In this document: one piece after another, positions 1-19,391 of the stretch
How the letters are laid out: each line of letters begins with the position of its first letter
Position numbering within the stretch: the stretch's first letter is position 1
Assembly (NCBI GenBank): GCA_020431405.1
Contig: JAGQIK010000677.1
Coordinates: forward strand, 620-64,619
Source: Myxococcales bacterium
Lineage (GTDB): Bacteria; Myxococcota_A; Polyangia; GCA-2747355
Direction: 5' to 3'
DNA: 64,000 nt
Program-made: the position numbers and the translations under genes
Notes under the pieces: model-generated
What the model was told of the DNA's origin: nothing
Database searches by the model: none
What the model saw: only the letters and a program-made list of their open reading frames with translations

Positions 1-492
1 TCCGCTGGCGCGCAGCTGCTCGGCGTAGGCGACGTTGGCCGCCAGCGCGTCGCACCAGGTGTCGTAGAGCGCGGTGCAGCCGCACGGCGCGTAGGTGCTC
101 TGGTCGAGGCGCGTGGCGTCGCTCACCGGAAGGTAGCTGTGCACCACCGTCGGCGTGTCGTTGAAGGTCCACAGGGCGCAGAGGATCTCGTCGCGCTGCT
201 TGGAGCCGTCGAAGGCGTCGAGCATCTGGCGCTGCCCGTCGCGCACCGCCTGCTGCAGCGAGCGCCCCGAGATACTCGACGACGCGTCTACCAGCAGCGT
301 CACCAGCGTGACGTCGGCGGCGACGATGTTCTCGGCGGCTACACCGGCGGCGCCCGCGATGACGACCTCGCCGAGGTCGCCGCCGAGCAGCGCCGTGCTG
401 GTCTGTGCGCTGAGCGTGCCGGCGCTGACCGCCGAGGCGAAGAGGTTCGATAGGTCGAGCGAGCTCGTCTTGTTGCTGTTGTTGTTGCTCAT
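1..492 (-). CDS. vWA (von Willebrand factor A) domain protein, TerY-like, N-terminal part; gene continues past the window start
   Basis: Minus-strand ATG at 492..490 (plus-strand 'cat'). Manual translation begins MSNNNSNKTSSLDLSNLFASAVSAGTLSAQTSTALLGGDLGEVV...VTLVTLLVDASSSISGRSLQQAV... and contains a MIDAS-type DxSxS motif (LVDASSSIS) in a hydrophobic beta-strand context typical of vWA domains. There is no stop before coordinate 1. The ORF table omits it because it runs off the edge. Confidence 0.5.
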   Translation of the reverse strand, partial: MSNNNSNKTSSLDLSNLFASAVSAGTLSAQTSTALLGGDLGEVVIAGAAGVAAENIVAADVTLVTLLVDASSSISGRSLQQAVRDGQRQMLDAFDGSKQRDEILCALWTFNDTPTVVHSYLPVSDATRLDQSTYAPCGCTALYDTWCDALAANVAYAEQLRASG

Positions 493-505
493 GGCGAATG
501 TCCTT

Positions 506-1477
506 TCAGATGGTGATCGGATCGCTGGTGCGCACGATGTGCATGCCCGAGCGCTTGAAGTCGGCGAGCGCCTCGGCGGCGATGCGCGGGAAGTCGAGCT
601 CGGCCGGCAGCGGGTCGATAGGCGGCGCCGGCACGGGGCTCATGGCGTCCTCGAGGATGTAGACCTTGTCGGCGAGCTTGGGGTCGTGCGTCTCGATGTG
701 GTCGCGGATGTCGCGCAGCGTCGAGAGCACGCAGTGCGAGCTGGCCTGTCCGAACACGTAGACACGGTCGTACTCCATCAGCATCTGGAAGAACGCCGTG
801 TTGAAGCCGCCGACGACCTGACCGTCGAGCTCGGTGACCTCGGGCGAGAGCACCGAGTAGTTCTCGGTGAGCGCGTGGGTGCCTTTGGTCTCGAAGTGCG
901 TCTGGCGCAGCCGCACCAGCGCGTGAAAGAGCGAGGCCTCCATCAGCGCGGGCACCAGCGCGTGGCTCACGCCGCCGAGCAGCGTGTGATAGGGCCAGAT
1001 CGTCAGCACGTACTTGCCGGTGGACTCGAGCCGCTTGCAGTACTCGAGGCAGGCGCGCGGGTGCGAGACGGGCCGCCAGCGACCCGATGCCACGTCCTCG
1101 TAGCTGATGGCGGTCAGCGGCGCGGGGTGTTTGCCTTCGACGTCGGTCCACCAGGCCGGGTGAAAGATCTGAAACGCGCGGTGCGTGTCGAGCGAGAAGT
1201 GCAGGCCCGTGATCTTGTCGAGGTTGGTGTAGAGCCACTCGATGGCGCGGCGCGTGTCGTCGACGGCGCCAGGCACGAAGAGGCTCGCGCCCGGCGTGCA
1301 AAAGCCGATCTGGCAGTCGATGCCGAAGGCAGCCACGCGGAAGGTGTCGCGCGCGGCGGGCGTGATGTTGTGGCGCAGCCGGTAGTCGAGCGCGACGTCG
1401 GCGACGACATCGGCGCGCTCGAGGTGAAGCTCGGAGACGCGGGCAGGGTCGTAGAAACGTGGGATGGGAAGGCTCAT
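506..1477 (-). CDS. isochorismatase-family cysteine hydrolase
   Basis: 323-aa ORF with the family's N-terminal motif (AAFGIDCQIGFCTPGASLFVPGA resembles LLVIDMQNDFxxPGGxLxVPGA) and the catalytic-cysteine motif YVFGQASSHCVLSTLRDI (GxxxxxCV...D). It sits 15 bp downstream of the kinase gene on the same strand. Confidence 0.6.
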   Translation of the reverse strand: MSLPIPRFYDPARVSELHLERADVVADVALDYRLRHNITPAARDTFRVAAFGIDCQIGFCTPGASLFVPGAVDDTRRAIEWLYTNLDKITGLHFSLDTHRAFQIFHPAWWTDVEGKHPAPLTAISYEDVASGRWRPVSHPRACLEYCKRLESTGKYVLTIWPYHTLLGGVSHALVPALMEASLFHALVRLRQTHFETKGTHALTENYSVLSPEVTELDGQVVGGFNTAFFQMLMEYDRVYVFGQASSHCVLSTLRDIRDHIETHDPKLADKVYILEDAMSPVPAPPIDPLPAELDFPRIAAEALADFKRSGMHIVRTSDPITI

Positions 1478-1492
1478 GATCGTTCTCCTTCC

Positions 1493-3415
1493 TCAGCGCA
1501 TGCTGAGCTGTGTGATGTCCTTGGTGGTCACGACGTAGAGCGAGCCGCCGGGGCCGGCGAGAAGCTCGACGTCGCCCGAGACGTAGGGCGCGGCCTCGTC
1601 GAAGCAGCGCTCGACGACGATCTGGCCGCTGTGGCGATCGACGCGCGCGGCGACGAGCCCGGCGTCGCTGGCCGCGACGATGCGCCCAGCGCGCAGCGCC
1701 TTGCCGCGCACGGTGGCGAGCAGCGGGCTGTCGTCGGGGGCGCCGGCTGCGGCGGCGACGAGGCGGCCGTCGGCGCCGATCACGTAGAGGCTGGTGCGCA
1801 GCGCGCCGGCGCGCTCGGTGGCGATGGCGAGCAGCACGCCGCCGTCGTCGAAGCTGGCGGCGGCGTCGACGATGCGGCTGCCGATCACGTCGCCGGCCGG
1901 CAGCGCCACGTCGACGAGGCCCGGGCGGCCGCAGCGCCAGATGAACGTGCGCCACATCTCGCCGGCGCGATAGAAGCCGACGCCGAGTCGTTCGCCAGCG
2001 GCGATCCAGGTCTGCCCGGCGAGCACCTGGCCGATGCGCTGCTCGCGTCGCAGCGCGTTGGCGTTGCCGGCGGCGCCGGCGCGGCCGGTGGCGACGGACT
2101 CGACGAGATAGCCACCCGCGATGCGGTAGCAGGCGCTGCTGTTGCAGGCGAAGGCGGGCAGCACGCCGAGGGTTGCCGTGCTGGCGCGCGCGGCGGCGCG
2201 CTCGCGCTCGATCGCCACCAGCTCGCTGCCACGGCCAACCCACGTGCTCGCGCCATTGATGGCGAAGCGCAGCCCCGGCGCGAGCTCGCCGCGCATCACC
2301 ACCTCGCCGTTTTCGCGGCGCGCCACGCCGCCCTCGAAGACGATCGTGCGCAGGCTGCCTTGTACGACCGCGTCGAGCAGGCGACCGCGCGTGCGCAGCA
2401 ACGTCAGCGCGGTGAGCCGGCCGACGTGTGTGGGCGCAGCTGGCTGGGCGGCCACGCCGCCGACGGCGACCCAGCGCGAGCAGGCTGGACAGCGCGGCCG
2501 CGCGTGCTCGACGCCGCAGTCGCAGCGGCGCCAGCGCGCCTCGAGCAACGTGGCGGCCGGTGCGGCGCGCTCGGCGCGCTGGAATGTGGCGATGAAGTAG
2601 TCGCGCAGCGCCTCGGGCAGCACGCTCGGATCGGCGGCCGTGCGCGGCGTGCGCACCTGGTCATCGAAGATGCTGGCGGCCGCCTCGGCGCGGCGCAGCA
2701 GCGTCGGCAGCCGCGGGTGCACGCCGCCGTAGGGGTGCACGTAGAGCAGGCAGCTGAAGAGCAGCACGGCGAAGGCGTACCAGTCGCTGGCGGCGTCGAA
2801 GCGCGGCGCGGCGGCGAGGTCGACACCGTAGAGGCGCGGGTCGAGCGTGCGCTCGTGGCCGACGATGCAAGGCAGGTCATCCCACTGCATCGAGTCGGCG
2901 TCGATGATGTGCGCGCGCGGCGCGGCGCCGGCCGCGGCTGGCACCGTGTAGAGCACGTTTTCGGGGTTTAGATCGCCGACGCAGACGCCGCGTGCGTGCA
3001 GCGCCTCGAGCGCGAGATAGAGCTCGCGAAAGAGCGCGAAGAGCTGGTTGTTGTCGATCACGCCCTCGCGCGCGCTGCGGCGGCCAAGGCGGCCGAGGTG
3101 GTCGGCGCCTTCGACGAGCGGCATGGCGTAGCCGCAGACGGCGTCGCGCTTGTCGAGCAGCAGGCCGTCAGCGCACGGGGCGACGACCTGCGCTGGCAGC
3201 GCCCGCGGAAACGCGGCCAGCTTGCGCTGCTTGAGCGCGAGCGCGTCGCGCATCACGCGTGAATAGTGATCGCGCGCGCGCGGCGCCGGCGCGTGGAAGA
3301 CCTTGAGCGCTTCGTCGCCGAGGCGATACACCTCGGCCTCGCCGCCGACGCCGACGCGCATGCTGTCATCGAGGCGCACGCGCGCGCCGCGCAGCTTGAC
3401 GGTCGACGGCGTCAC
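1493..3415 (-). CDS. atypical Ser/Thr protein kinase with C-terminal zinc ribbon and unknown beta-rich domain
   Basis: Gly-loop and Lys (VGVGGEAEVYRL...ALKVFH), a degenerate catalytic loop (HARGVCVGDLNPENVLY in place of HRDLKPEN), a DFG-region analogue (IIDADSM) and a Cys4 cluster (CDCGVEHARPRCPACSRW). The likely GTG start at 3415..3413 overlaps the PP2C stop (GTGA coupling). An alternative ATG lies at 3362..3360. The long ORF 1493..4192 is the same frame extended upstream spuriously. Confidence 0.7.
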   Translation of the reverse strand: MTPSTVKLRGARVRLDDSMRVGVGGEAEVYRLGDEALKVFHAPAPRARDHYSRVMRDALALKQRKLAAFPRALPAQVVAPCADGLLLDKRDAVCGYAMPLVEGADHLGRLGRRSAREGVIDNNQLFALFRELYLALEALHARGVCVGDLNPENVLYTVPAAAGAAPRAHIIDADSMQWDDLPCIVGHERTLDPRLYGVDLAAAPRFDAASDWYAFAVLLFSCLLYVHPYGGVHPRLPTLLRRAEAAASIFDDQVRTPRTAADPSVLPEALRDYFIATFQRAERAAPAATLLEARWRRCDCGVEHARPRCPACSRWVAVGGVAAQPAAPTHVGRLTALTLLRTRGRLLDAVVQGSLRTIVFEGGVARRENGEVVMRGELAPGLRFAINGASTWVGRGSELVAIERERAAARASTATLGVLPAFACNSSACYRIAGGYLVESVATGRAGAAGNANALRREQRIGQVLAGQTWIAAGERLGVGFYRAGEMWRTFIWRCGRPGLVDVALPAGDVIGSRIVDAAASFDDGGVLLAIATERAGALRTSLYVIGADGRLVAAAAGAPDDSPLLATVRGKALRAGRIVAASDAGLVAARVDRHSGQIVVERCFDEAAPYVSGDVELLAGPGGSLYVVTTKDITQLSMR

Positions 3416-4293
3416 GACGCCACCTCGACGTTCCCGATGGCTGCGGCGCCGCGCCGCTGCAGCAGCACACAGGTGGTGTCGTCGGCGAGCGGCACCTCGC
3501 GCGCGACCACGCGCAGGCGCTTCTGCAGCAGGCTCGGGTTGCGTGTCAGCGCCGCGTCGCCGCCGAGCGCCACCAGCGGCGCTGCGTTGCTGCTGTCGAG
3601 CAGCGGGCGGCAGCCGTCGCTGCCGACGGCGAGCGTCTGCAGTGTCGCTGTCGAGCCGCCGCAGATCACACGCAGCGCGCACGAGCGCAGCGGCGGCGCG
3701 CTGAGATCGCGCGCGCGCAGCAGGCGATAGGCGGGGTAGGGCGGCGCCTCGCCGGGGCCGGCGTCGACGATGGTGGCCACGCCGTCGGCGAGCACCACGC
3801 CGTCGCCGGCGCACAGCGCGACCCAGCGATCGCGCGTGATGACCGCGGCGGTGATGCTGAACAGAAGCTGCGAGCCGACGGTCTCGACGAAGCCATCGCG
3901 ACCGCCGCACAGCAGCGCGAGCTCGCCGAGAAAGCGCGTCAGACGCGAGTCGAGCACCGCGGCGAGGCTCGAGAGCGGCGTGCCGTGGTCGAGCAGCTGC
4001 GCCGCCTGGCGCGCCAGCCAGCGCGCCCCGATACGGGCGCCGATCTCGCTCAGCGCACCGGACGAGCAGCCGTCGGTGACGATGGCGATCAGATAGTCGT
4101 CGCTGCGCGCGATGGCCCAGCCGTCCTGGTTGTTGCGGTCGACGCGGCTGTGCGCGCGGCCGATCAGCGAGGCTGCGCTGGCGGCGAAACACTGCGGCGC
4201 CGGCGCGGCGCTCGGGCGGGCGACGGGTTTTGCGATGGATGTCGCGAGCATGGACGGCCTCCTCAGTGTCGTCGTGACTCTATTAATGGTCAC
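3412..4293 (-). CDS. PP2C-family (SpoIIE-like) Ser/Thr phosphatase, partly degenerate metal site
   Basis: PP2C-like motif order: IAIVTDGCSSGALSE (DGxGG-like), LCAGDGVVL (GDSR-like), DDTTCVLLQ (DNxT-like C-terminal motif). The more likely start is the second Met (MLATSIA, ATG about 4251). The stop overlaps the kinase start. Confidence 0.55.
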   Translation of the reverse strand: MTINRVTTTLRRPSMLATSIAKPVARPSAAPAPQCFAASAASLIGRAHSRVDRNNQDGWAIARSDDYLIAIVTDGCSSGALSEIGARIGARWLARQAAQLLDHGTPLSSLAAVLDSRLTRFLGELALLCGGRDGFVETVGSQLLFSITAAVITRDRWVALCAGDGVVLADGVATIVDAGPGEAPPYPAYRLLRARDLSAPPLRSCALRVICGGSTATLQTLAVGSDGCRPLLDSSNAAPLVALGGDAALTRNPSLLQKRLRVVAREVPLADDTTCVLLQRRGAAAIGNVEVAS

Positions 4294-4385
4294 AACGACA
4301 ATAATAGCTCGCGCGGCGGTGATATCAAGGGGCCGAGCCGCCGATTCTCTGGTCGCAGACGAGCGCGTGTATAACTTCAGAGCCG
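4294..4385. promoter_or_regulatory. AT-rich divergent promoter island between the TerY-P-like operon and the CPBP gene
   Basis: Sequence gactctattaatggtcacaacgacaataatagctcg is locally far more AT-rich than the ~70% GC background and contains an imperfect inverted repeat (TATTAAT...ATAATA). Confidence 0.4.
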
Positions 4386-5171
4386 ATGTCGGACGACGAG
4401 CGACCCACCACCGACGAGCAGCCAGCGCCGCCCTTCGACCGGCGGCGCGAGCTGCGCCACACGCTGCTTCACTGGCTCGGCGCCACCGCGGCGTGCGCGC
4501 TGCTGTGGCAGCTGCGCCGCGTGGTGCCCTTTGTCGCGTCCAACCTGCACGCGCTGATCGCCGCGGTCTTTCTCTACCTGCCGACCTGGCTGGTCTCTCG
4601 CCGCCGCGAGCGCTTCGAGGACTACGCGCTGACCCATCGCCCGCTGCTGCGCGGGCTCGTCACCTTCGCGGTGATCTCGGCGATCGTCTTTCCGCTCTTC
4701 GCGGTGGCGATGTGGTTTTACTACCGCATCGTCTGCGGCTGGGTCAGCGCCGGCGTCGCCATGCCGGGCGTCTACCGGCGCATGTGCCGCCGCTTCGCCG
4801 GCACGCTCTCGCGGGCGCGGCTACGGCTGCCCAAGCGCTTCCCGCGGCTGGCTCTGGCGCAGCTGGTCGTGGTGGCGCTGCCCGAGGAGTACTTCTTTCG
4901 CGGCTACGTGCAGACGCGCCTGTCACGGGTCTATCCGGCCAAACGCCGCCTCTTCGGCGCCCCCTTCGGCTGGGCGATCATCTTCACCTCGATCCTCTTC
5001 GCCTTCGGCCACGTGCTGGTCGACTTCAACCCGCTGCGCTTCGCCGTGTTCTTCCCATCGCTGGCGTTCGGCTGGCTGCGCGCGTCCAGCGGCTCGATCC
5101 TCGCCGGCGTGCTGTTTCACGCCTGCTGCAACCTCGTCAGCGAGGTGCTGCACGCGATGGTCTTTGTGTAG
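4386..5171 (+). CDS. CPBP-family intramembrane metalloprotease (CAAX protease/Abi-like)
   Basis: All three CPBP motifs are present: EExxxR (PEEYFFRGY), FxxxH (FAFGHVL), HxxxN (HACCNLV). Multiple hydrophobic transmembrane segments. Confidence 0.8.
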   Translation: MSDDERPTTDEQPAPPFDRRRELRHTLLHWLGATAACALLWQLRRVVPFVASNLHALIAAVFLYLPTWLVSRRRERFEDYALTHRPLLRGLVTFAVISAIVFPLFAVAMWFYYRIVCGWVSAGVAMPGVYRRMCRRFAGTLSRARLRLPKRFPRLALAQLVVVALPEEYFFRGYVQTRLSRVYPAKRRLFGAPFGWAIIFTSILFAFGHVLVDFNPLRFAVFFPSLAFGWLRASSGSILAGVLFHACCNLVSEVLHAMVFV

Positions 5172-5185
5172 TAAACCCCTCGGCC

Positions 5186-6076
5186 ATGCATGCTCCGCTG
5201 GGCTGGACGCCCGCCATCGGTCAGCTCATCGATCTGGCCCTCGAAGAAGACCTCGGCCGCGGCGACATCACGACGCAGGTGGCCGGCAGCGAAGAGGACG
5301 CCATCGGCACCATCGTCGCGCGCCAGCGGTTGGTCTGCTGCGGGCTGCCGGTGGCCGATTGGGTCGCCGAGCGCGCCGAGCCCGAGCTCTCGCACGAGGG
5401 CCACGCCGAGGACGGCGACTGGCTCGAGGCCGGCGCGGTGCTGGCGCGCTTCGCGGGCCGCGCGAGCAGCATCCTGCGCGTGGAGCGCGTGGTGCTCAAC
5501 TTCCTGATGCGCATGTGCGGCGTCGCGACGATCACCGCGCTCTACGTCGACGCGGTGGCGGGAACGCGCGCGCGCATCGTCGACACGCGCAAGACGCTGC
5601 CTGGCTGGCGCGCGCTCGACAAGTACGCCGTGCGCGTAGGCGGCGGCCACAACCACCGCTTCGATCTCGGCTCCGGCGTGCTGATCAAAGACAACCACAT
5701 CGTCGCCTGCGGCTCGGTAGGCGCGGCCGTGCGCCGCGCGCGCGAGCAAGCGCCGCACCCGATGCGCATCGAGGTCGAGGTCGAGAGCCTGCCGGCGCTC
5801 GAGGAGGCGCTCGGTGCTGGCGCCGACGTGCTGCTGCTCGACAACATGACACCCGAGCAGGTCGGCGACGCGGCGCGGCTTTGCGACGGGCGCGCGATGA
5901 TCGAGGTTTCGGGCGGCATCGCCCTCGACAACGTCGCCGAGTACGCCGAGGCGCTCGAAGCGGCGCTGCCCGAGAGCGCTGCGGCGCCGCTGATCTCCAT
6001 CGGCGCGCTGACCCACTCGGTGCTCGGCGCTGACATCTCGCTCGACCTCTCGCGCGCCTCGGTGCAGGTCGCATGA
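5186..6076 (+). CDS. nadC: nicotinate-nucleotide pyrophosphorylase (carboxylating), quinolinate phosphoribosyltransferase
   Basis: [30 protein letters not shown]...[40 protein letters not shown]...LLLDNM is typical NadC. ATG at 5186. The long ORF 4112..6076 is the same frame extended upstream. Confidence 0.85.
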
Positions 6077-6867
6077 GCGCCAGCACCCTCGCACCGGAAG
6101 CCTTCGCGGCGCGGCTCTCCAGCCGCACGAGCTGGCTCGCTCATGCCCACGAGCACCTCGCCTCCGTCGCGTCGACCAACGACGAGGCGGCGCGCCTCGC
6201 CGCGGGCGGCGCCGCGCACGGCACGCTGATCACCGCCGACGAACAGACGGCCGGCCGCGGCCGCCAGGGGCACGTCTGGTTCGCGCCGGCCGGCCAGAAC
6301 CTGACCTTCTCGTTGGTGCTACGTCCCGACATCGCGCCCAGCGCGGCGCCCGCCATCGCGCTCGCCGTCGGGCTCGGCATCGCCGAAGGGCTCGAGGCCC
6401 AGCTCGCGCCGGCGGGCAAGTCCGCCGCCGTCAAGTGGCCCAACGACGTGCGCGTCGCGCGACGCAAGATCGCGGGCGTGTTGACCGAGCTCAAAGCCGA
6501 CACGCGGCGTATCGAGCACGTCATCGTTGGCGTGGGCCTCAACGTCAACACGCGCGCCTTCCCCGACGACCTCGCGGCCCCCGCCACGTCGCTGGCCCTC
6601 GAGCTCGGCGCCGATCGCGAGCCGGCCGACGTGCTGGCGGACGTGCTGCCGCCGCTCGAGCGCTGGATCGATCGCTTCATCGACGAGGGCGCCGCGCCGG
6701 TGGTCGAAGCCTTCGTCGCGCGCGGCGACTTCCTCGGACACCCCGTGCGCATCGGAGCGCTGCACGGCGAGGCGCTGGGGCTCGACGCGGACGGCGCGCT
6801 GCGGCTGCGCCTCGACAGCGGCGAGGAGCGCCGCGTGCTCGCCGGCGACCTGCACGACCACGAATAG
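6073..6867 (+). CDS. birA: biotin--[acetyl-CoA-carboxylase] ligase (group I, no HTH)
   Basis: GRGRQGHVW (biotin-binding GRGRxGxxW) and KWPNDV motifs. The start ATG overlaps the nadC stop (ATGA). Confidence 0.85.
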
Positions 6868-6885
6868 ACGTGCTAGTAGACTGCA

Positions 6886-7152
6886 GTGGAACTTAAACAC
6901 GAGCTGAAGACGCTGATCATCGAGACGCTCGAGCTCGAGGGGACGACGCCGGACGAGATCGTCGACAGCGCGCCGATCTTCGTCGAAGGGCTGGGGCTCG
7001 ACTCCATCGACGTGCTCGAGCTGACGGTGGTGGTCGAGAAGCGCTACGGCGTCTCGATCCCCGACGAGGCCACGGGCCGGCGCGTGTTCGCGTCTATCGA
7101 CGCGCTGGCGGCGTTTGTCAGGCAGAGCAACAGCAGCAGCGATGCCGCGTAG
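6886..7152 (+). CDS. acyl carrier protein
   Basis: 88 aa, acidic, with phosphopantetheine attachment motif LGLDSIDVLEL. GTG start at 6886. Confidence 0.75.
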   Translation: MELKHELKTLIIETLELEGTTPDEIVDSAPIFVEGLGLDSIDVLELTVVVEKRYGVSIPDEATGRRVFASIDALAAFVRQSNSSSDAA

Positions 7153-7735
7153 CGCGGTCGCGCTCGCGCTGCCGCTGCTCTGCGCCAGCGCGAGCGCCCA
7201 CGCGTCACCGGCCAGCGAGCTGCTCGCCGCCGCAGCCGCACGGCACGAGCAGACGCGCGAGCTGCGCGGCACCTTCGAGCAGATCAAGCGCGTCGCGCTC
7301 TTTCGCAGCGCGGTCAGGTCCAGCGGCCGCTTCGTCGTCAAACGCGCCGCCGGCAAGCTCGAGCTGCGCTGGATCACGGACAAACCATCGCCCAGCGAGC
7401 TGCGCTTCGACGGCAAGCACGTCGAGCTGCGCGCCCCCGGCGCCACAACGCGCAGGGTCGACATCGCTCGCGCCCCGCGTTTCGGCGCGCTCGTGCAAGA
7501 CCTCGTCGCCTTTCTCGGCGCCGGCGGCGCCAAGACGCTTGGCAACCGCTACACCGTCAGCGGCGATCCAAAAACACGCCGCATCGAGCTCGTCCCACGC
7601 GACGCTTCGCTGAAGAAGCGCATCGAGCGCGTCACTCTGACGCTCGAGGCAAACCTCGCGACGCGCGCGTTGAAGATCGACGAGCGCTCGGGCGACAGCA
7701 CGCACATCACGCTGCACGTCAGCAGCCGCCGCTGA
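7142..7735 (+). CDS. LolA-like outer-membrane lipoprotein carrier/sorting family protein (secreted)
   Basis: Signal peptide MPRSAVALALPLLCASASAHA. The rest is consistent with the LolA/LppX beta-barrel family (ELRGTFEQIKRVALFRS...GKLELRWITDKP). The start overlaps the ACP stop (ATGCCGCGTAG). Confidence 0.5.
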   Translation: MPRSAVALALPLLCASASAHASPASELLAAAAARHEQTRELRGTFEQIKRVALFRSAVRSSGRFVVKRAAGKLELRWITDKPSPSELRFDGKHVELRAPGATTRRVDIARAPRFGALVQDLVAFLGAGGAKTLGNRYTVSGDPKTRRIELVPRDASLKKRIERVTLTLEANLATRALKIDERSGDSTHITLHVSSRR

Positions 7736-7786
7736 ACGCGGCGAATCGTACAAAGCGTTGGCAGGTCGCCCGCGAAGCTGGCCCTC

Positions 7787-8395
7787 TCACGCGCGAGCGG
7801 CTGAAAGGAGCATCGCAGCGCTCGCACGCGCGAAGGCACGTAGGGCGCGCCGGCTGCTGCCGCTGCGCGCTCTGAGCGAGATGCTGTGCACCGCGGCGCT
7901 GCTCAGCCGCGCCAGCGTCAGCACGTCGCAGTGCGCCGGCAGCTCGCCTGCGCTTACCGCGCGTTCGAAGCGCCGGCGTAGCCGCTCGTCGAGCGCGTCG
8001 ACCACCTTGGCCACCGCGGCGCGTGTCGTCGGGTGCTCGACAGCCTCGAGCGCCGCCACGCTGAAGACGAAGCAGCCGCGCGCCGGCTCGTCACCCGGGG
8101 CGTAGACGTCGACCACCCCCACGAGCAGCTCGGCGAGCGCCGTGTCGAGGGGGTCCTGCTCGAGCACGGCGCCGAGGGTCTGCGACATGCGCTGCTGAAA
8201 GCGTCCGAGGGCCTGGGCGAAGAGCTCGCTCTTGTCACCGAAGGCGGCGTAGAGGCTCGGGCGCTGCATGCCCGTGGCCTCGCTGAGCGCGTCGAGCGTT
8301 GTCGCGGCATAGCCGCGTGTCCAGAACAGCGTCAGCGCGGCGTCGAGGGCGATCTCGGGGTCGTACTTGCGCGGGCGTCCTCTCTTGCGCTCCAT
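7787..8395 (-). CDS. TetR/AcrR family transcriptional regulator
   Basis: N-terminal HTH GRPRKYDPEIALDAALTLFWTRGYAATTLDALSEATGMQRPSLYAAFGDK is typical TetR. Likely start at MERKRG (ATG about 8395). The ORF extends to 8431. Confidence 0.8.
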   Translation of the reverse strand: MERKRGRPRKYDPEIALDAALTLFWTRGYAATTLDALSEATGMQRPSLYAAFGDKSELFAQALGRFQQRMSQTLGAVLEQDPLDTALAELLVGVVDVYAPGDEPARGCFVFSVAALEAVEHPTTRAAVAKVVDALDERLRRRFERAVSAGELPAHCDVLTLARLSSAAVHSISLRARSGSSRRALRAFARASAAMLLSAARA

Positions 8396-8404
8396 GGCGA
8401 TTAT

Positions 8405-8420
8405 TTTACTGACTTGTAAA
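8405..8420. promoter_or_regulatory. candidate TetR operator (inverted repeat TTTAC-N6-GTAAA) in an AT-rich divergent intergenic region
   Basis: tttactgacttgtaaa lies within ttattttactgacttgtaaataaatcggcaatgcactattttgtac, which is strikingly AT-rich for this genome. Confidence 0.4.
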
Positions 8421-8479
8421 TAAATCGGCAATGCACTATTTTGTACTGGATCGAATAAAACATCTCGACCGAGGGCTCC

Positions 8480-9286
8480 ATGATGGCTCGATCATCCACA
8501 CACCCCGTCAAGCGCTGGCTTCGTCGCCTTGGCATCGTGCTGGCCAGCGTGTTGGTGCTGCTCGGGGCGCTGGCCTTCGTCGCCTTCCGCACCAACCTGC
8601 TGCTCTCGTCGCTCGAGACGGGCGCGCTCGGCAGCGAACGCGAGGCCGACGCACTGCTGCGCGGGCTCGCCGCCGCCCACGGCACGCCCGAGCGCTGGCG
8701 CAGCCAGGGCCATCTGGTGATGCGGGTGCGCGGCAACGTCGCGTTCTTCGCCGCGCGGCGCGCCTTCGGCCTCGATCAGGCGAAGATCGAGCTCACGCTG
8801 CGTTTTCGACCGAATGCGCCCGGCCGCTATCACTACGTGCTGGTCGACGGCGCGCGCGTGCGGCGCGGCCACGTCGACACGCGTCGCGATCGCGACGGCC
8901 TCGGCCTGCTGCTCGACTCGGTGCACCACCTCTTCGCGCTGCCCTTCGTCGCCGGCGAAATCCCCGTGCGGCGCGGCATGGCGAGGGCGCCCAGCGGCGA
9001 GCAGCGTGCCTTTTTCACCTGGGGCCGCGGCACCGCGGCGAGCCCAAAGCACGATCAGGTCGTGCTGTGGACGCGCGCCGGTGGCCTGGTGCGCATGGAC
9101 ACCACGGGACGCGACATCGCGCCGTTCATCGTGGCGCGCGTGCAGTTCGAGGGCACCGTGCGCATGGGGCAGCTGCGCCTGCCCGCGCGCGCGACGGTCT
9201 ACGACGACCGGTTCGGTCGGCTGGTGCAGCGCTTCGAGCTCGTGTCCATCGCGCGCGAGCCTGGCGCCGCGGTCTCGCACCGCTAG
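8480..9286 (+). CDS. hypothetical membrane-anchored protein, divergent from TetR
   Basis: N-terminal transmembrane anchor (LGIVLASVLVLLGALAFVAF). Non-repetitive composition. Divergently arranged to the TetR gene across the AT-rich operator region. Confidence 0.45.
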   Translation: MMARSSTHPVKRWLRRLGIVLASVLVLLGALAFVAFRTNLLLSSLETGALGSEREADALLRGLAAAHGTPERWRSQGHLVMRVRGNVAFFAARRAFGLDQAKIELTLRFRPNAPGRYHYVLVDGARVRRGHVDTRRDRDGLGLLLDSVHHLFALPFVAGEIPVRRGMARAPSGEQRAFFTWGRGTAASPKHDQVVLWTRAGGLVRMDTTGRDIAPFIVARVQFEGTVRMGQLRLPARATVYDDRFGRLVQRFELVSIAREPGAAVSHR

Positions 9287-11642: not shown

Positions 11643-13352
11643 CTAAAGCCCCTGCTTGAACAACCCCGAAAGCGCCGCGCTCAGGTCCGCATCAGTATCG
11701 GGGCCGATGCTGTTGGTCTCTTCGTAGTGATCGCCCTCCGCCTCGAGCAGGTAGGGCAGCGAGAAGTGCGTCTCGAAGTTGAAGCGCGGGATGATGTAGC
11801 CGACGAAGTCGGGCGTCAGGCCGAGCACCATCTTGTAGCGGCCCGTCATCAGGTCCTTCAGATACGGCCCCGCCGGCGCCTTGCTCATGTCGGGCGGGTT
11901 CTTGTTGTTGGGATCGACCTGCGGCCAGCTGTAGCTATGCGCCTTGTCGTAGCCGATGGCGATCTCGGGGTGAAGCTCGCCCGGCACGGTGGCGAAGTGC
12001 GCCTTGCCGATGTGGATGCTCGCCAGCTCCGTCGGGATGCGCGGCTTGTTGTTGGGCCCAGGCGGCTTCGTTTCGTCGTAGCCGACTACGCGCCGCTTCA
12101 TGGCGCCGAGCTTGAACGCCTGATGATAGAGCACGTTCTCCACGGTCAGCTCGGTCTTGGTGGTGGCGAAGCTGAGCGCCGGCGCGTCGTCGCTGTCGGT
12201 GCTCGCCGAGAGCGCGTCGAGCGCGAACGCCGCCACCGCGTCGCCGATGGCGCGTGCCCACCCTTCGCCTTTTTCGGTGACCGGCTTGCCGTCGGCGTCG
12301 ATCGGCTTGACGCGGTTGGGGCCGATCTGGCCGCCCAGCGCGCCCTGGAAATAGATCGTCGTGCCGCCCACGCCCGAACGCCCGCGCACGCCGTTTTCGA
12401 CGCCGTCGCGTACGAAGCGCACGAAGTCGGCCGAGTACATGCGGCGCTTGCTGCCCCACGACTCGGGGTGGTGCGCCCAGTGCACCAGCGTCGCCACCGT
12501 GCTGCTGTCGGACTTGGCGACGAAGCGCAGCATGGTCAGCGTCGGATCGATGACCACCGGATCGCGCGAGTCGCTGACGTAGGGCTCGGTGCTGCCGTTC
12601 TTGTCGACGGTCTTGGTCTCGGCGTAGATCACGCGCGCCGGCACCAGCGCTTTGGCCGCCGCGGTCACCGCGCCGACGATCTTCTGGCGTAGCTCGGCCA
12701 TGTACTTCGGGTCGACGCCGCCTTCGCCGAGGGTTCGGCCCCAGATGCCGACCGTGTCGGGCCCGTTGTGGTTGTGCGTGGCGCCGACGAGCAGCAGGTC
12801 GATGCCCAGCGACGGGTCGAGCATCTGTCGCATGGCCTCGGTCTCGTCGAAGAAGAGCCCGATCAGATCCACCGAGACCAGCGCCAGCGTGGTGTCGTCC
12901 TGCCTGAGCACGAGCACGCGCGCCTGCAGGTCGTCGTTGACGCCGTTGGATGGCTGGTTGTTGCCGAAGCCGGCGAGCCAGCACGGATCGAAGGCGCCGT
13001 TGTTGTTGAGGTCGGTGTAGGGCTCGTCTTTGTCGTGGTGGTAGTCGTCGTTGGTGTCGGTGTAGGGCTCGCAGCCGCTCGGGTTGATCACCACCTTGGC
13101 AGTGCCGACCAACAGCTCGCCGCCGGCGCCCTTGGGACAGCTCGGTGCTCCGGGGCAGACCAGCGACGGCGTGCCCGGCGGCAGCGCGTCGCTGCCCGCG
13201 TCCGCTGGCGCGTCGCCACCCGCGTCGGCGACCACCGCCGGCCCGTCAGCCGTGGGCTTGTCGTCAGCGCAGCCGCCGGCGATCAGCAGCAGCGCGCCGA
13301 GGACCACGGACCAGCGCGACACCAGCCTCCACACGCGAATCCCGCACATCAT
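11643..13352 (-). CDS. neutral/alkaline ceramidase-like lipoprotein hydrolase
   Basis: Lipobox LLLIAGGCADD. The motif LLLVGATHNHNGPDTVGIWG resembles the neutral ceramidase active-site segment (ATHTHSGPGG). It sits 3 bp upstream of the next lipoprotein gene. Confidence 0.5.
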   Translation of the reverse strand: MMCGIRVWRLVSRWSVVLGALLLIAGGCADDKPTADGPAVVADAGGDAPADAGSDALPPGTPSLVCPGAPSCPKGAGGELLVGTAKVVINPSGCEPYTDTNDDYHHDKDEPYTDLNNNGAFDPCWLAGFGNNQPSNGVNDDLQARVLVLRQDDTTLALVSVDLIGLFFDETEAMRQMLDPSLGIDLLLVGATHNHNGPDTVGIWGRTLGEGGVDPKYMAELRQKIVGAVTAAAKALVPARVIYAETKTVDKNGSTEPYVSDSRDPVVIDPTLTMLRFVAKSDSSTVATLVHWAHHPESWGSKRRMYSADFVRFVRDGVENGVRGRSGVGGTTIYFQGALGGQIGPNRVKPIDADGKPVTEKGEGWARAIGDAVAAFALDALSASTDSDDAPALSFATTKTELTVENVLYHQAFKLGAMKRRVVGYDETKPPGPNNKPRIPTELASIHIGKAHFATVPGELHPEIAIGYDKAHSYSWPQVDPNNKNPPDMSKAPAGPYLKDLMTGRYKMVLGLTPDFVGYIIPRFNFETHFSLPYLLEAEGDHYEETNSIGPDTDADLSAALSGLFKQGL

Positions 13353-13480: not shown

Positions 13481-15290
13481 ATGCGCGGCCGGATACCCGA
13501 GTCGGTTATTGCCGACATTCGTGATCGCACCGATATCGTGCAGGTAATCGGCAGATACGTAGAGCTCAAGCGCTCCGGCGGCAACCACAAGGGGCTCTGT
13601 CCGTTTCACGACGAGAAGACGCCGTCTTTCAACGTGAACGCAGATAAGCAGTTTTTTCACTGCTTTGGCTGCCAGGAGAGCGGCGACGTCATCGGCTTCC
13701 TGATGAAGCTCGAGGGCCGCACCTTCATGGAGGTCGTCGAGGAGCTGGCGCAGCGCGCTGGCGTCGAGATCCAGCACGAGTCGCCCGCGGAGGCGCAGCG
13801 GGCGGCGGCCCGGCGCAGCGAGCGCCAGCGCATGCTGGATCTAAACGCCAAGGTGCTCGGCTTCTATCGCGCGCTGCTGTCACGCTCCGAGGGCAGCGAG
13901 GCGCGCGACTACCTCGCCCAGCGCGGCATCAGCGACGAGATCGCCGAGCGCTTCCAGCTCGGCTTCGCGCCCGATGGGGCGCAGCGGCTGGTGCGCAAGC
14001 TCGAGTCCGCTGGGATCCCGCTCGAAGAGGGCGTGCGCGCTGGCGTCATCGCGCGCCGTCGCAACGGCGGCTACTACGATCGCTTCTGGAACCGGCTGAT
14101 CTTCCCGTTGGTGGGCGCGGGAGGGGAGGTCCTCGGCTTTGGCGGCCGTACGCTTTCGCAGGAAAGCGACGTCCCCAAATACGTAAATACTCCCGAGACG
14201 AGCCTCTATCGCAAGGGCGAGGCGCTCTACGGCATCGATGCGGCGGCGGCGGCCATGCGCCGCACCGACACGTGCCTGCTCGTCGAAGGCAACTTCGACG
14301 TCCTACAGATGCATCAGTACGGCTTCGACAACACCATCGCGCCGATGGGCACCGCGCTGACCGAGCGCCAGGTGCGCCTCGTCAGGCGCTTCGCCAGCCG
14401 CATCGTCGCGATCTTCGACGGCGACTCGGCCGGTCGCAAGGCCGCGCGACGTGCGGCGCCGACGATGGTGGAGGGCGGCGTCGAGGCCAAGATCGTCCGG
14501 CTGCCGCTGGGCAAAGACCCCGATGACCTGCTCGCCGACCAAGGCGCCGAAGAGATGACGCGCCTCATCGAGCACGCCACCCCCGTGGTCGACTACCTGC
14601 TGTCCGAGCTTCAGGACGAGATGGAAGACTCCGTCCCCGGTCGCGCCCGCGTCCTGCAGGCGATCGCGCCGGTGGTGGCTAACCTGGAAAACCCTGTCAT
14701 CAAAGACCTTTACGTCGATCGCCTGGCGCTCACGCTGCACATCGAGCGCGAGGTAGTGCGGCGCGCGACGGCCAGCGGCGGCTCCGAGCACGCCAAGCGG
14801 CTCGTCGCCGAGGCCGACGCCGAGGCCGCGCGCCAGCAGGGGCGGCCCGTGCCGCGCGAGCCGCTGCCACCCCACGAGGTCGATCCGATCGCGATCCTGC
14901 TCGAGCACCCGCATCTGTTTCCCAGAGCCGAGGAGGCCAACCTCCGAAGCCTTTTGACAAATGACGGGCTGCGCGCTACGTATTCCGCCGCCATGGAACT
15001 CCAGCGGGAGTCGGGGACCGTCGATGTTCCGCAGTTACTTCGCGGCCATACGACGGACCCTCGGGTCAAGGACGAGCTCGCTCGTCGCTCCATGTCTGGC
15101 GAGTACAAGACCGACGGAGATCCGAGGCGCCTGCTCGACGATTGTATCCACACGCTGCAGGAGCTGAGAGAGGACGAGAGGATGGCGTCTCTGCGCGCCA
15201 GCATCGCCAGCGCCGAGGCAGCGGGCGAACAGACGCAGAACCAGCTTCGAGAGTTGAACGAGCTGATCAAAAAGAAGAGGCAACGTATAC

Positions 15291-15304
<14 letters not shown>
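13481..15304 (+). CDS. dnaG: DNA primase
   Basis: Zinc-ribbon [31 protein letters not shown] region [26 protein letters not shown], and a DnaB-interaction C-terminus. Confidence 0.9.
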
Positions 15305-17672
<2,368 letters not shown>

Positions 17673-18251: not shown

Positions 18252-19391
18252 ATGCGAGCTAAGAGCGTTGGATTTCTCGTCGCCGCCCTGCTGCTGATCG
18301 CGGGCGCGCCGCCCGCCGCCGCGGTGCCGACGCAGATCGCCTACTCGGGTCGTCTCGAGCGCAACGGCACGGCTGTGACGGGCACGGTCTCGGTGACATT
18401 CGACCTCTACGACGCCAGCACGGGCGGCACCAAGCTGTGGACCGAGGTGTACGCCTCGATGTCGGTGAGCAACGGGATCTTCTACGCCAACCTCGGCGCC
18501 TCGACGCCGCTCGACAGCACGATCTTCACCGGCGCCGACCGCTGGCTCGAGGTCACCGTCGACGGCACCACGCTCACGCCACGCGTCAAGGTCGTCTCGG
18601 TCGCCTACGCGATTACCGCCAGCAACGTCACGGGCGACATCACGCCGCGCAGCATCTCCATCGGCGGCAACGTCGTGATCGACAGCAACGGCAAGTGGGT
18701 CGGCGATGTCGCGGGCCTTCAGGGACCGGCGGGGCCGACTGGCCCGACAGGGCCCGCGGGCCCAACCGGCCCGATGGGCCCCACCGGCGCGACCGGACCG
18801 ACGGGACCGACGGGGCCCAGCGGCCCGATGGGCGTCGCGGGCGGCGTGGGGCCGATCGGTCCGACGGGCCCGACCGGTGCCACGGGCGCTACTGGCCCGA
18901 CGGGCCCGACGGGCCCCACGGGACCGCAGGGCGTCGTGCAGTCCAACCGCGATCACCCGTTCAGCGCCTCGGTGACGGTGAGCGGCACGACCATCACGCG
19001 CGTGGCCGGCGCCTCGCTGACCGTCGCCGCGGGTGAAGCCGTCGTGCTCAACGGCTCCGTCGAGCTGCGCTCGGCGTCCACGGGCAGCATCAGCACCGAT
19101 ATCGGCCCCTGCACCGACGCATCGGGCACGCTTTCGTTTCCGCAGACGTCGCCGCCCAACCAGACGGACTGGGCCGTGACGTACGTGTCACGTACGTTCT
19201 CCGGGTTCGAGACCGGCATGTTCGTGCCGATCACCTTCATCTTCCGCGCGACGACCTCGGGCACGTTCACCTACGGCATCTGCGTGCGCAACTACAACAC
19301 GCAGGTGCCCGTCAGCGCGCGCCAGCAGCACGTCACGGTGCTGCGCATCAACCCGCAGCCGCCGCCGCCGCCGGTCATCATCCCGCAGTAG
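18252..19391 (+). CDS. secreted collagen-like triple-helix repeat protein with tail-fibre-like N-terminal domain
   Basis: Signal peptide. The N-terminal ~150 aa carries the LW-E-Y-S-V-NG-F-LG...RWLEV motif pattern seen in phage and contractile-injection-system tail-fibre repeats. About 33 consecutive GxT/GPx triplets follow ([37 protein letters not shown]...). The C-terminal ~150-aa globular domain ends in a poly-Pro tail. Confidence 0.65.

Follow-up and report, generated by a model that had tools for sequence, protein, structure and literature searches.

Bases 1-4293 of the stretch of Myxococcales contig JAGQIK010000677.1 analysed here (the window, 64,000 nt) carry a four-gene cassette in which a phosphatase, a protein kinase and a von Willebrand factor A (vWA) protein, apparently of the TerY-P type, accompany a predicted nicotinamidase. 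All four genes lie on the minus strand. The most upstream encodes a PP2C_2-family Ser/Thr phosphatase of 279 aa (3412-4251). It is followed by the gene for a kinase of 640 aa (1493-3415, with a GTG start at 3415-3413 and a stop at 1495-1493), the hydrolase gene (506-1477, 323 aa), and a gene for a TerY-like vWA protein with a metal ion-dependent adhesion site (MIDAS). The latter (1-492) starts at ATG 492 and is cut by the window edge, leaving the N-terminal 164 of about 265 residues; full-length orthologs measure 263-270 aa. The genes are tightly packed, with spacings of -4 bp (PP2C-kinase), 15 bp (kinase-hydrolase) and 13 bp (hydrolase-vWA), the PP2C stop codon (TGA, 3414-3412) overlapping the kinase start as GTGA. 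This layout agrees with the first-pass annotation, which had described four co-directional genes in the order PP2C, kinase, hydrolase and vWA, the GTGA overlap and the 15-bp gap; the order itself recurs in 56 of 62 related loci. The motifs quoted there (GDLNPEN, DGCSSG and a Cys4 ribbon, C-x-C-x8-C-x2-C) are likewise present in the sequence. The limit of 4293 given to the PP2C gene does not hold. This position is the GTG of the longest open reading frame (ORF), located upstream of an operator-like palindrome (4264-4282) and approximately at the transcription start implied by the promoter, and the likelier start is therefore ATG 4251, six bases after a GAGGAGG. The window is about 70% G+C and, as a result, shows long spurious ORFs on every strand. 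A 938-aa plus-strand ORF (155-2971), antisense to the kinase and hydrolase genes, and other long overlapping ORFs were dismissed as artefacts of this composition.

Recognition of the individual domains by sequence was uneven, and structure prediction and orthologs were used to confirm the hydrolase, kinase and vWA assignments. Pfam recovers the families originally named for the four products only in part: the phosphatase matches PP2C_2 above gathering threshold (PF13672, E=5e-13) and the vWA protein does so through a full-length ortholog (VWA, E=5e-6; E=0.007 for the truncated window copy), but the kinase (Pkinase, E=1e-4) and the hydrolase remain below threshold. Residue conservation was scored across 60-80 orthologs per protein (61 sequences for PP2C and 80 for the hydrolase). 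In the phosphatase, D43, D60-G61, D150-G151, D212-G213 and D257-D258 are at least 95% conserved. The metal-binding motifs of this protein had been regarded as degenerate, a view which is contradicted by the conservation of the metal-binding aspartates D43, D60, D150, D212 and D257/D258.

The kinase comprises three regions. A Hanks-type protein kinase domain (residues 1-295; 2531-3415, minus strand) has G22/G24/G25, K38, D148, N150, N153 and D172 conserved in at least 95% of orthologs. It is followed by a Cys4 zinc ribbon (2480-2524), whose cysteines C298, C300, C309 and C312 are invariant or at least 95% conserved, and by a C-terminal all-beta domain (residues ~329-640; 1493-2431) which is confidently modelled as propeller-like, with about 29 strands, and which ends at the stop codon. 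This beta domain is kept in all orthologs, including copies of only 28-34% identity, and a Pfam search matched it to no named family. Homologs of the kinase are annotated only as "hypothetical protein". In the vWA protein, the MIDAS residues D69-x-S71-x-S73 and T140 are conserved and orthologs retain a T-D-G motif. Sequence searches of the PDB with the vWA and PP2C proteins found nothing, and a tblastn search of plasmids with the full-length vWA protein gave only four weak and uninformative matches. On average, orthologs are 70% identical to the hydrolase of the window, 59% to its vWA protein, 44% to its kinase and 37% to its phosphatase. Since the active-site and MIDAS residues are conserved across these orthologs, all four proteins look catalytically or ligand-binding competent.

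The third gene product had been described as an isochorismatase-family cysteine hydrolase. Its conserved Asp-Lys-Cys triad and the fold of its structural model agree with that description, but its identity appears more specific. The seven best Foldseek matches of the model in the PDB are all nicotinamidases (E from 1e-7 to 1e-4), ahead of generic isochorismatase-like enzymes; they include PncA of A. baumannii (2wta, E=1e-7) and P. horikoshii (1ilw), yeast Pnc1 (2h0r) and Leishmania PNC1 (3r2j). The triad (D54/K198/C249) is at least 95% conserved among the 80 sequences, and all copies of 36-54% identity retain it unchanged. D97, H99 and H164 (DxH ... WPxH), which we take to be the metal ligands by motif comparison with Pnc1, are also at least 95% conserved. 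Because its best structural matches are PncA and Pnc1 and because it retains the residues of both the triad and the Asp/His/His metal site, the protein is predicted to be a long-form nicotinamidase, that is, a PncA/Pnc1-like cysteine hydrolase. It has the isochorismatase-like fold, triad and metal site in common with the characterised enzymes (2wta, 1ilw and 2h0r), but its identity to them is only 14-19%. It differs also in being unusually conserved (66-75% identity across phyla) and in three added elements, namely a helix at the N-terminus, a proline-rich segment at the C-terminus and an insert that separates the DTH motif from WPYH.

Compared with PncA enzymes of 180-215 aa, the window protein carries about 110 extra residues, which are highly conserved. 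Among its best 120 matches, which come from Myxococcota, Planctomycetota, Riflebacteria, Schekmanbacteria, Sericytochromatia and other groups, identity is 68-76%, and the proteins are annotated as "nicotinamidase" where they are annotated at all. Such strong conservation, together with the family-specific residues, would fit a constraint imposed by partner proteins, although this is speculation. One loop (residues 196-214, ETKGTHALTENYSVLSPEV) is invariant and is a candidate phosphosite. The hydrolase gives no NCBIfam match and no sequence-level match in the PDB. Its family, which escapes the present Pfam and NCBIfam models, is large: 2,119 clusters at 50% identity are retrieved at E<=0.001, and 351 at E<=1e-30. 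Several members are fused proteins (among P0122, P0138, P0148, P0150, P0159, P0175 and P0212). One has a C-terminal alcohol-dehydrogenase GroES-like (ADH_N) domain and several carry about 250 aa of unrecognised sequence at the N-terminus, Pfam being otherwise uninformative.

The association of the four genes was examined in 80 genome loci around hydrolase homologs, onto each of which the four window proteins were mapped; 62 of these loci have enough flanking sequence. The arrangement PP2C-kinase-hydrolase-vWA, in the same order and orientation, is found in 56 of the 62. Among the remaining six, five lack only a PP2C call (under the spacing criterion used) and one has the hydrolase alone. The conserved order spans at least four phyla (Myxococcota, Planctomycetota, Riflebacteria and Sericytochromatia). 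A reverse test starting from the kinase, in a scan of viral contigs, identified four contigs with full-length kinases of 28-34% identity, and each of them has, in addition, genes for the phosphatase, the vWA protein and the hydrolase (32-40% identity). In one of these contigs (L083, IMGVR_UViG_3300037047_000216) the order is permuted to hydrolase-vWA-PP2C-kinase. This four-gene arrangement is far beyond chance, and its survival through deep divergence and rearrangement of gene order indicates functional coupling. The first-pass annotation had left room for the hydrolase being randomly positioned; with 56 of 62 loci and four of four divergent contigs, it is an integral member of the cassette. 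Three loci (L038, L043 and L065) have the hydrolase together with a nicotinate phosphoribosyltransferase (NAPRTase)-like gene and/or nrtR, without the triad. Since salvage genes are kept there without the triad, the salvage enzymes look like the core of the system and the triad like an add-on.

The genes that surround the cassette in its relatives belong to the metabolism of nicotinamide adenine dinucleotide (NAD), a linkage that can be read directly from the loci. In 35 of the 56 complete loci, the PP2C gene is immediately preceded by a NAPRTase-like gene. The product of this NAPRTase-like gene, of 493 aa, is divergent: it matches human NAPRT (4yub, E=6e-11), the NAPRTase of E. faecalis (2f7f, E=1e-10) and TIGR01513 (E=3e-31, below the model cut-off), and is below all NCBIfam cut-offs. 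In locus L037 its stop codon overlaps the PP2C start. Downstream, nrtR directly follows the vWA gene in 16 of the 56 and is further away in others. The encoded protein has NUDIX and NrtR_WHD domains and matches NF050029, "ADPR responsive transcriptional repressor", with E=4e-53. Right after nrtR in L037 (12747-14126), an NMN-adenylyltransferase (NMNAT)-like domain with a GRFH motif is fused to a class I S-adenosylmethionine-dependent methyltransferase. Homologs of this fusion also follow nrtR in L003 and L069. The permuted locus L083 (2045-15734) assembles genes for a NAPRTase-like protein, NadE (NAD synthase), the hydrolase, the vWA protein, the phosphatase, the kinase, a DUF4419 protein, an ADP-ribosylglycohydrolase and NrtR, the last two within a few kb beyond the kinase gene. 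The stress- and phage-associated setting proposed in the first-pass annotation is thus not what is found; the neighbours are NAPRTase-like, NrtR, NadE, NMNAT-like and ADP-ribosylglycohydrolase genes.

Published NrtR regulons include the arrangement nrtR-pncA-pncB in several phyla and pncB-nrtR-pncA in a planctomycete (PMC2330246). The cassette loci resemble these pncA-pncB operons in having a nicotinamidase and a NAPRTase-like gene beside nrtR and a GT-N7-AC palindrome between the promoter and the first gene (PMC2330246). They differ in that kinase, phosphatase and vWA genes are not among the members of the published regulons (PMC2330246), that their nicotinamidase is a long form (323 aa) with no Pfam or NCBIfam match above threshold, and that their NAPRTase-like protein is divergent. 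The new element suggested by these comparisons is the recruitment of a TerY-P-type triad into an NrtR-type nicotinamide salvage operon, the triad and NrtR salvage operons each being known.

The region upstream of the PP2C gene contains a putative sigma70-like promoter on the minus strand (4301-4328, TTGATA-16-nt-TATTAT), which agrees with the consensus at 10 of 12 positions where 0.1 such matches are expected in shuffles of the region, and which is a consensus match only. Between its -10 element and the ribosome-binding site, and abutting the latter, a palindrome scan locates a candidate NrtR-type operator (4264-4282; TAGAGTC-ACGAC-GACACTG on the minus strand) with a GT-N7-AC core. It is the only match in the 64 kb to TAGAGTC-N5-GACTCTA at up to two mismatches, with 0.04 expected by chance. 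The same element recurs in relatives, where ATAGAGTCTTGACGACTCTAT occurs repeatedly in the segment richest in A+T immediately before the first gene of the operon (NAPRTase-like or PP2C). When all 80 loci (1.28 Mb) were scanned for TAGAGTC-N5-GACTCTA with up to three mismatches, the palindrome was found within about 60 bp of the operon start in approximately 50 of them and in only a handful of other places, two of which precede a lone hydrolase gene or nrtR.

NrtR sites have been described as a 21-bp palindrome with a GT-N7-AC core that overlaps the promoter or lies between it and the start codon, and ADP-ribose was shown to release NrtR from DNA (Rodionov et al. 2008, PMC2330246). Because the GT-N7-AC core and the position between promoter and start codon correspond to those of the published sites, we infer that the conserved palindrome is an NrtR-type operator, and TAGAGTCTTGACGACTCTA is a candidate target for the NrtR of a cassette-bearing species. 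A second dyad (4267-4300), with 12-nt arms at 4267-4278 and 4289-4300 that are 92% complementary, overlaps both the operator candidate and the predicted 5' untranslated region (UTR), and a third inverted repeat with 9-nt arms (4280-4288 and 4299-4307) overlaps the region of the NrtR-type site. These repeats (4267-4307) could form a second operator or a 5' UTR hairpin. Another operator candidate, GTSAC-N8-12-GTSAC, was dropped because it is not conserved in relatives. Rfam families, including NAD riboswitches, gave no match in bases 1-7000.

TerY-P, as defined by Anantharaman, Iyer and Aravind (2012) in the account given in PMC11090510, combines three proteins, a vWA protein resembling TerY, a phosphatase of the PP2C type and a Ser/Thr kinase with a fused zinc ribbon, and has been proposed to act as a metal-sensing phosphorylation switch (PMC11090510). 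Profile comparison (hhalign) with the triad of the R478 ter region supports a relationship for each of the three proteins. The vWA protein aligns with R478 TerY over the whole domain (94.6% probability, E=7e-8), including a C-terminal FQMVSQSAIRASQ-like helix seen in orthologs, and with a second R478 TerY (88.7% probability); the phosphatase aligns with the R478 PP2C (91.4% probability, E=9e-7) and the kinase with the R478 kinase (86.7% probability, E=4e-6). Moreover, the R478 kinase retrieves cassette kinases directly by tblastn (E down to 7e-9), and both kinases have an unusual D-L-N/S-x-x-N catalytic loop and I-D-x-D instead of DFG. On the basis of these profile matches, the tblastn matches and the shared kinase motifs, the trio is assigned by homology and architecture to a branch of the TerY-P family.

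The two systems have the same three protein types, and the kinase domain is followed by a Cys4 zinc ribbon in both. Unlike that of R478, however, the cassette holds a nicotinamidase within the order PP2C-kinase-hydrolase-vWA, its kinase bears the extra all-beta domain of about 310 aa, it has a single short vWA protein with no TerY-C domain, and its phosphatase is one domain of 279 aa as against 545 aa in R478. The genomic setting differs as well: no Ter or restriction genes are found near the cassette, which lies instead in an apparent NAD-salvage operon with an NrtR-type operator. Searches of the window and of 86 loci for homologs of TerD, TerZ, TerA, TerB, TerC and TerE found none. The early proposal of a TerY-P match consequently stands as regards the vWA, PP2C and zinc-ribbon-kinase architecture and the homology to R478, but not as regards a ter or restriction context. 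In the R478 ter region (L090, 11238-23577) the triad is located a few genes from phosphoribosyltransferase-domain, HpcH/HpaI aldolase and StiP-like genes, and its proximity to the phosphoribosyltransferase gene loosely recalls the NAPRTase-linked cassette. One distant relative of the cassette kinase, devoid of the beta-rich domain, belongs to a classical vWA-PP2C-kinase triad that includes no nicotinamidase (L088, IMGVR_UViG_3300048584_000195, 6596-8990).

Taken together, these observations make it somewhat probable that the region is a nicotinamide (Preiss-Handler) NAD-salvage operon under NrtR control, into which a TerY-P-type phospho-switch has been built. Within this reading, the assignment to NAD salvage is far better secured than the particulars of the switch. 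In such an operon, NAD consumption would cause ADP-ribose to build up, NrtR would dissociate from the palindrome that separates the promoter from the PP2C start codon, and the operon would then be transcribed. The 323-aa enzyme would deamidate nicotinamide to nicotinate, which the NAPRTase-like enzyme (encoded directly upstream in most relatives, outside this window) would turn into nicotinate mononucleotide. The Hanks kinase with its zinc ribbon and propeller-like domain, the phosphatase and the TerY-like MIDAS vWA protein would constitute a TerY-P-type switch within the salvage pathway. The kinase and the phosphatase may reversibly phosphorylate the vWA protein and/or one or more of the salvage enzymes, the MIDAS site and the propeller-like domain serving as docking or sensing surfaces, and salvage flux would thus be gated post-translationally. 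A precedent for the control of a metabolic enzyme by a kinase encoded beside it is that of Myxococcus xanthus Pkn4, which phosphorylates the phosphofructokinase whose gene lies next to pkn4.

Several points weigh against this interpretation. Neither nrtR nor the NAPRTase-like gene was found in the 64-kb window, although nrtR could sit just past coordinate 1, where it would be expected after the vWA gene. The palindrome of the window has two mismatches in one arm and overlaps the second dyad. The structural model of the hydrolase is of moderate confidence (predicted local distance difference test score of 75) and is poor around H164 and K198, and the protein scores only 13.9 bits (E=0.059) against Pfam Isochorismatase, for which the cut-off is 27. 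Gene content, folds, catalytic residues, the linkage to NAD genes and the conserved operator-like palindrome are observed directly, whereas the binding of NrtR, the activity of the nicotinamidase and the whole course of the phospho-switch, with its targets and its signal, are inferred from them. Furthermore, TerY-P-like modules whose kinase has an oligonucleotide-binding (OB) fold have been reported to act against phages (Gao et al. 2020, cited in PMC11090510), and complete cassettes occur on contigs that may be viral.

The possible viral occurrences merit description. Complete but divergent PP2C-kinase-nicotinamidase-vWA cassettes are found on three IMG/VR contigs of 266, 236 and 81 kb (L084, L085 and L087), among mostly unannotatable neighbours. 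The L087 contig also has a ParB-like gene (20-1417) and, after the vWA gene, one of the Mom family (11931-12755). The flanks of the IMG/VR contigs gave almost no PHROGs matches, and PHROGs and Pfam did not confirm their viral nature. The contigs for which this matters include UViG_3300025930_000007, 3300005544_000020 and 3300035242_000035. More distant long nicotinamidases (30-37% identity) are encoded in the huge-phage records LR756511, LR745208 and LR756500 (462-595 kb), and one is present in MT837596, a small fecal phage contig.

These occurrences bring in a different interpretation, according to which the cassette is a module of phage-host conflict over NAD, the TerY-P-like triad sensing infection and switching the nicotinamidase on or off. 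Nicotinamide could then be withheld from phage enzymes that reconstitute NAD, or recovery after depletion by defence NADases could be controlled, with viral copies being used against the host. TerY-P-like triads are reported to act against phages on their own and also to form part of restriction systems (PMC11090510). NrtR answers to ADP-ribose, the product of NAD-cleaving enzymes (PMC2330246), and the cassettes of the 81-, 236- and 266-kb contigs, like the nicotinamidases of the huge phages, point in the same direction. The kinase, moreover, is weakly similar to defence kinases (PD-T4-6, E=1e-8; MkoA, Mad6 and PglW), although its PADLOC matches are to generic defence-kinase models only, and PADLOC gave no meaningful match for the vWA, PP2C or hydrolase proteins in a release not confirmed to include TerY-P models. 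The neighbours in the window and in most loci are housekeeping or NAD-biosynthetic rather than defence genes, the viral status of the IMG/VR contigs is unconfirmed with PHROGs nearly empty, and a nicotinamidase is not an obvious toxic effector. The anti-phage system of Gao et al. (2020), as far as PMC11090510 describes it, has the same three-gene vWA, PP2C and Ser/Thr kinase logic, but its kinase carries an OB fold where that of the cassette ends in a zinc ribbon and a beta-rich domain, and the context of the cassette is metabolic and not a defence island. A conflict module is accordingly a doubtful proposition. Its more elaborate form is decidedly unlikely. This would be a hitherto unrecognised device in which a TerY-P-type sensor switch, acting on a dedicated and extremely conserved nicotinamidase, lets the cell, or a large phage bearing the cassette, choose whether the nicotinamide set free by NAD-cleaving immune enzymes is recycled or withheld; if true, it would directly connect protein phosphorylation with the contest of bacteria and phages over NAD.

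Alternatively, the enzyme might act in the cell on another pyridine or nucleotide-like amide or on a protein-linked group, and the cassette might make or recycle a specialised NAD-related metabolite, in parallel with the nucleoside-like metabolite proposed for ter operons. The low identity to the nicotinamidases of the PDB (14-19%), the failure to reach the threshold of any Pfam or NCBIfam model or to match a PDB sequence, and the conserved excess of about 110 residues over PncA would all be compatible with a different substrate. The associated NAPRTase-like protein is divergent too, falling under all NCBIfam cut-offs, and the R478 ter region likewise pairs a TerY-P triad with a phosphoribosyltransferase-domain gene. 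However, all six nicotinamidase active-site residues are conserved, including the Asp/His/His metal site, nicotinamidases outrank all other isochorismatase-like enzymes in the structure search, and NrtR, NadE and the NMNAT-like domain belong to ordinary NAD synthesis. Another substrate is for these reasons a slim prospect. The notion that the adjacency is meaningless, a housekeeping pncA having come by chance to lie inside an unrelated signalling operon, is very improbable. It can draw on the three loci in which the hydrolase occurs without the triad and can evidently stand alone. Against it, the linkage in 56 of 62 loci from several phyla, its persistence through permutation and divergence to 28-40% identity, and gaps of only -4 to 15 bp bring it close to refutation by synteny.

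Control of NAD salvage in bacteria is known at the level of transcription, through NadR, NiaR and NrtR, and the TerY-P triad has so far a largely hypothetical function. The fixation of kinase, phosphatase and vWA genes in a salvage operon across several phyla would point to an undescribed post-translational control of NAD salvage. If the salvage-operon reading is correct, the TerY-P triad would also gain a concrete metabolic partner, one that is experimentally approachable. No report linking a nicotinamidase with a vWA/PP2C/kinase triad was found in full-text searches of the literature, although the original TerY-P paper might mention the neighbourhood.

In the window itself, the cassette is set in core chromosome and not in a defence island, as indicated by the proximity of nadC, birA, dnaG and rpoD. 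A gene for a CPBP/Rce1-like membrane protease (4386-5171, plus strand) is divergent from the cassette operon. Beyond it, nadC, which encodes the quinolinate phosphoribosyltransferase of de novo NAD synthesis (~5186-6076, plus strand), lies about 1 kb from the salvage cassette and is followed by birA (6073-6867, plus strand). Further along are dnaG (13481-15304, plus strand) and a long rpoD (15291-17672, plus strand; 793 aa), which coincide with a dip in G+C content and a strong excess of A over T at 14-18 kb. An acyl-carrier-protein-like ORF was also noted by eye among the housekeeping genes. A ceramidase-like gene is located at 11643-13352 on the minus strand, and a gene for a collagen-repeat protein (18252-19391) comes after rpoD.

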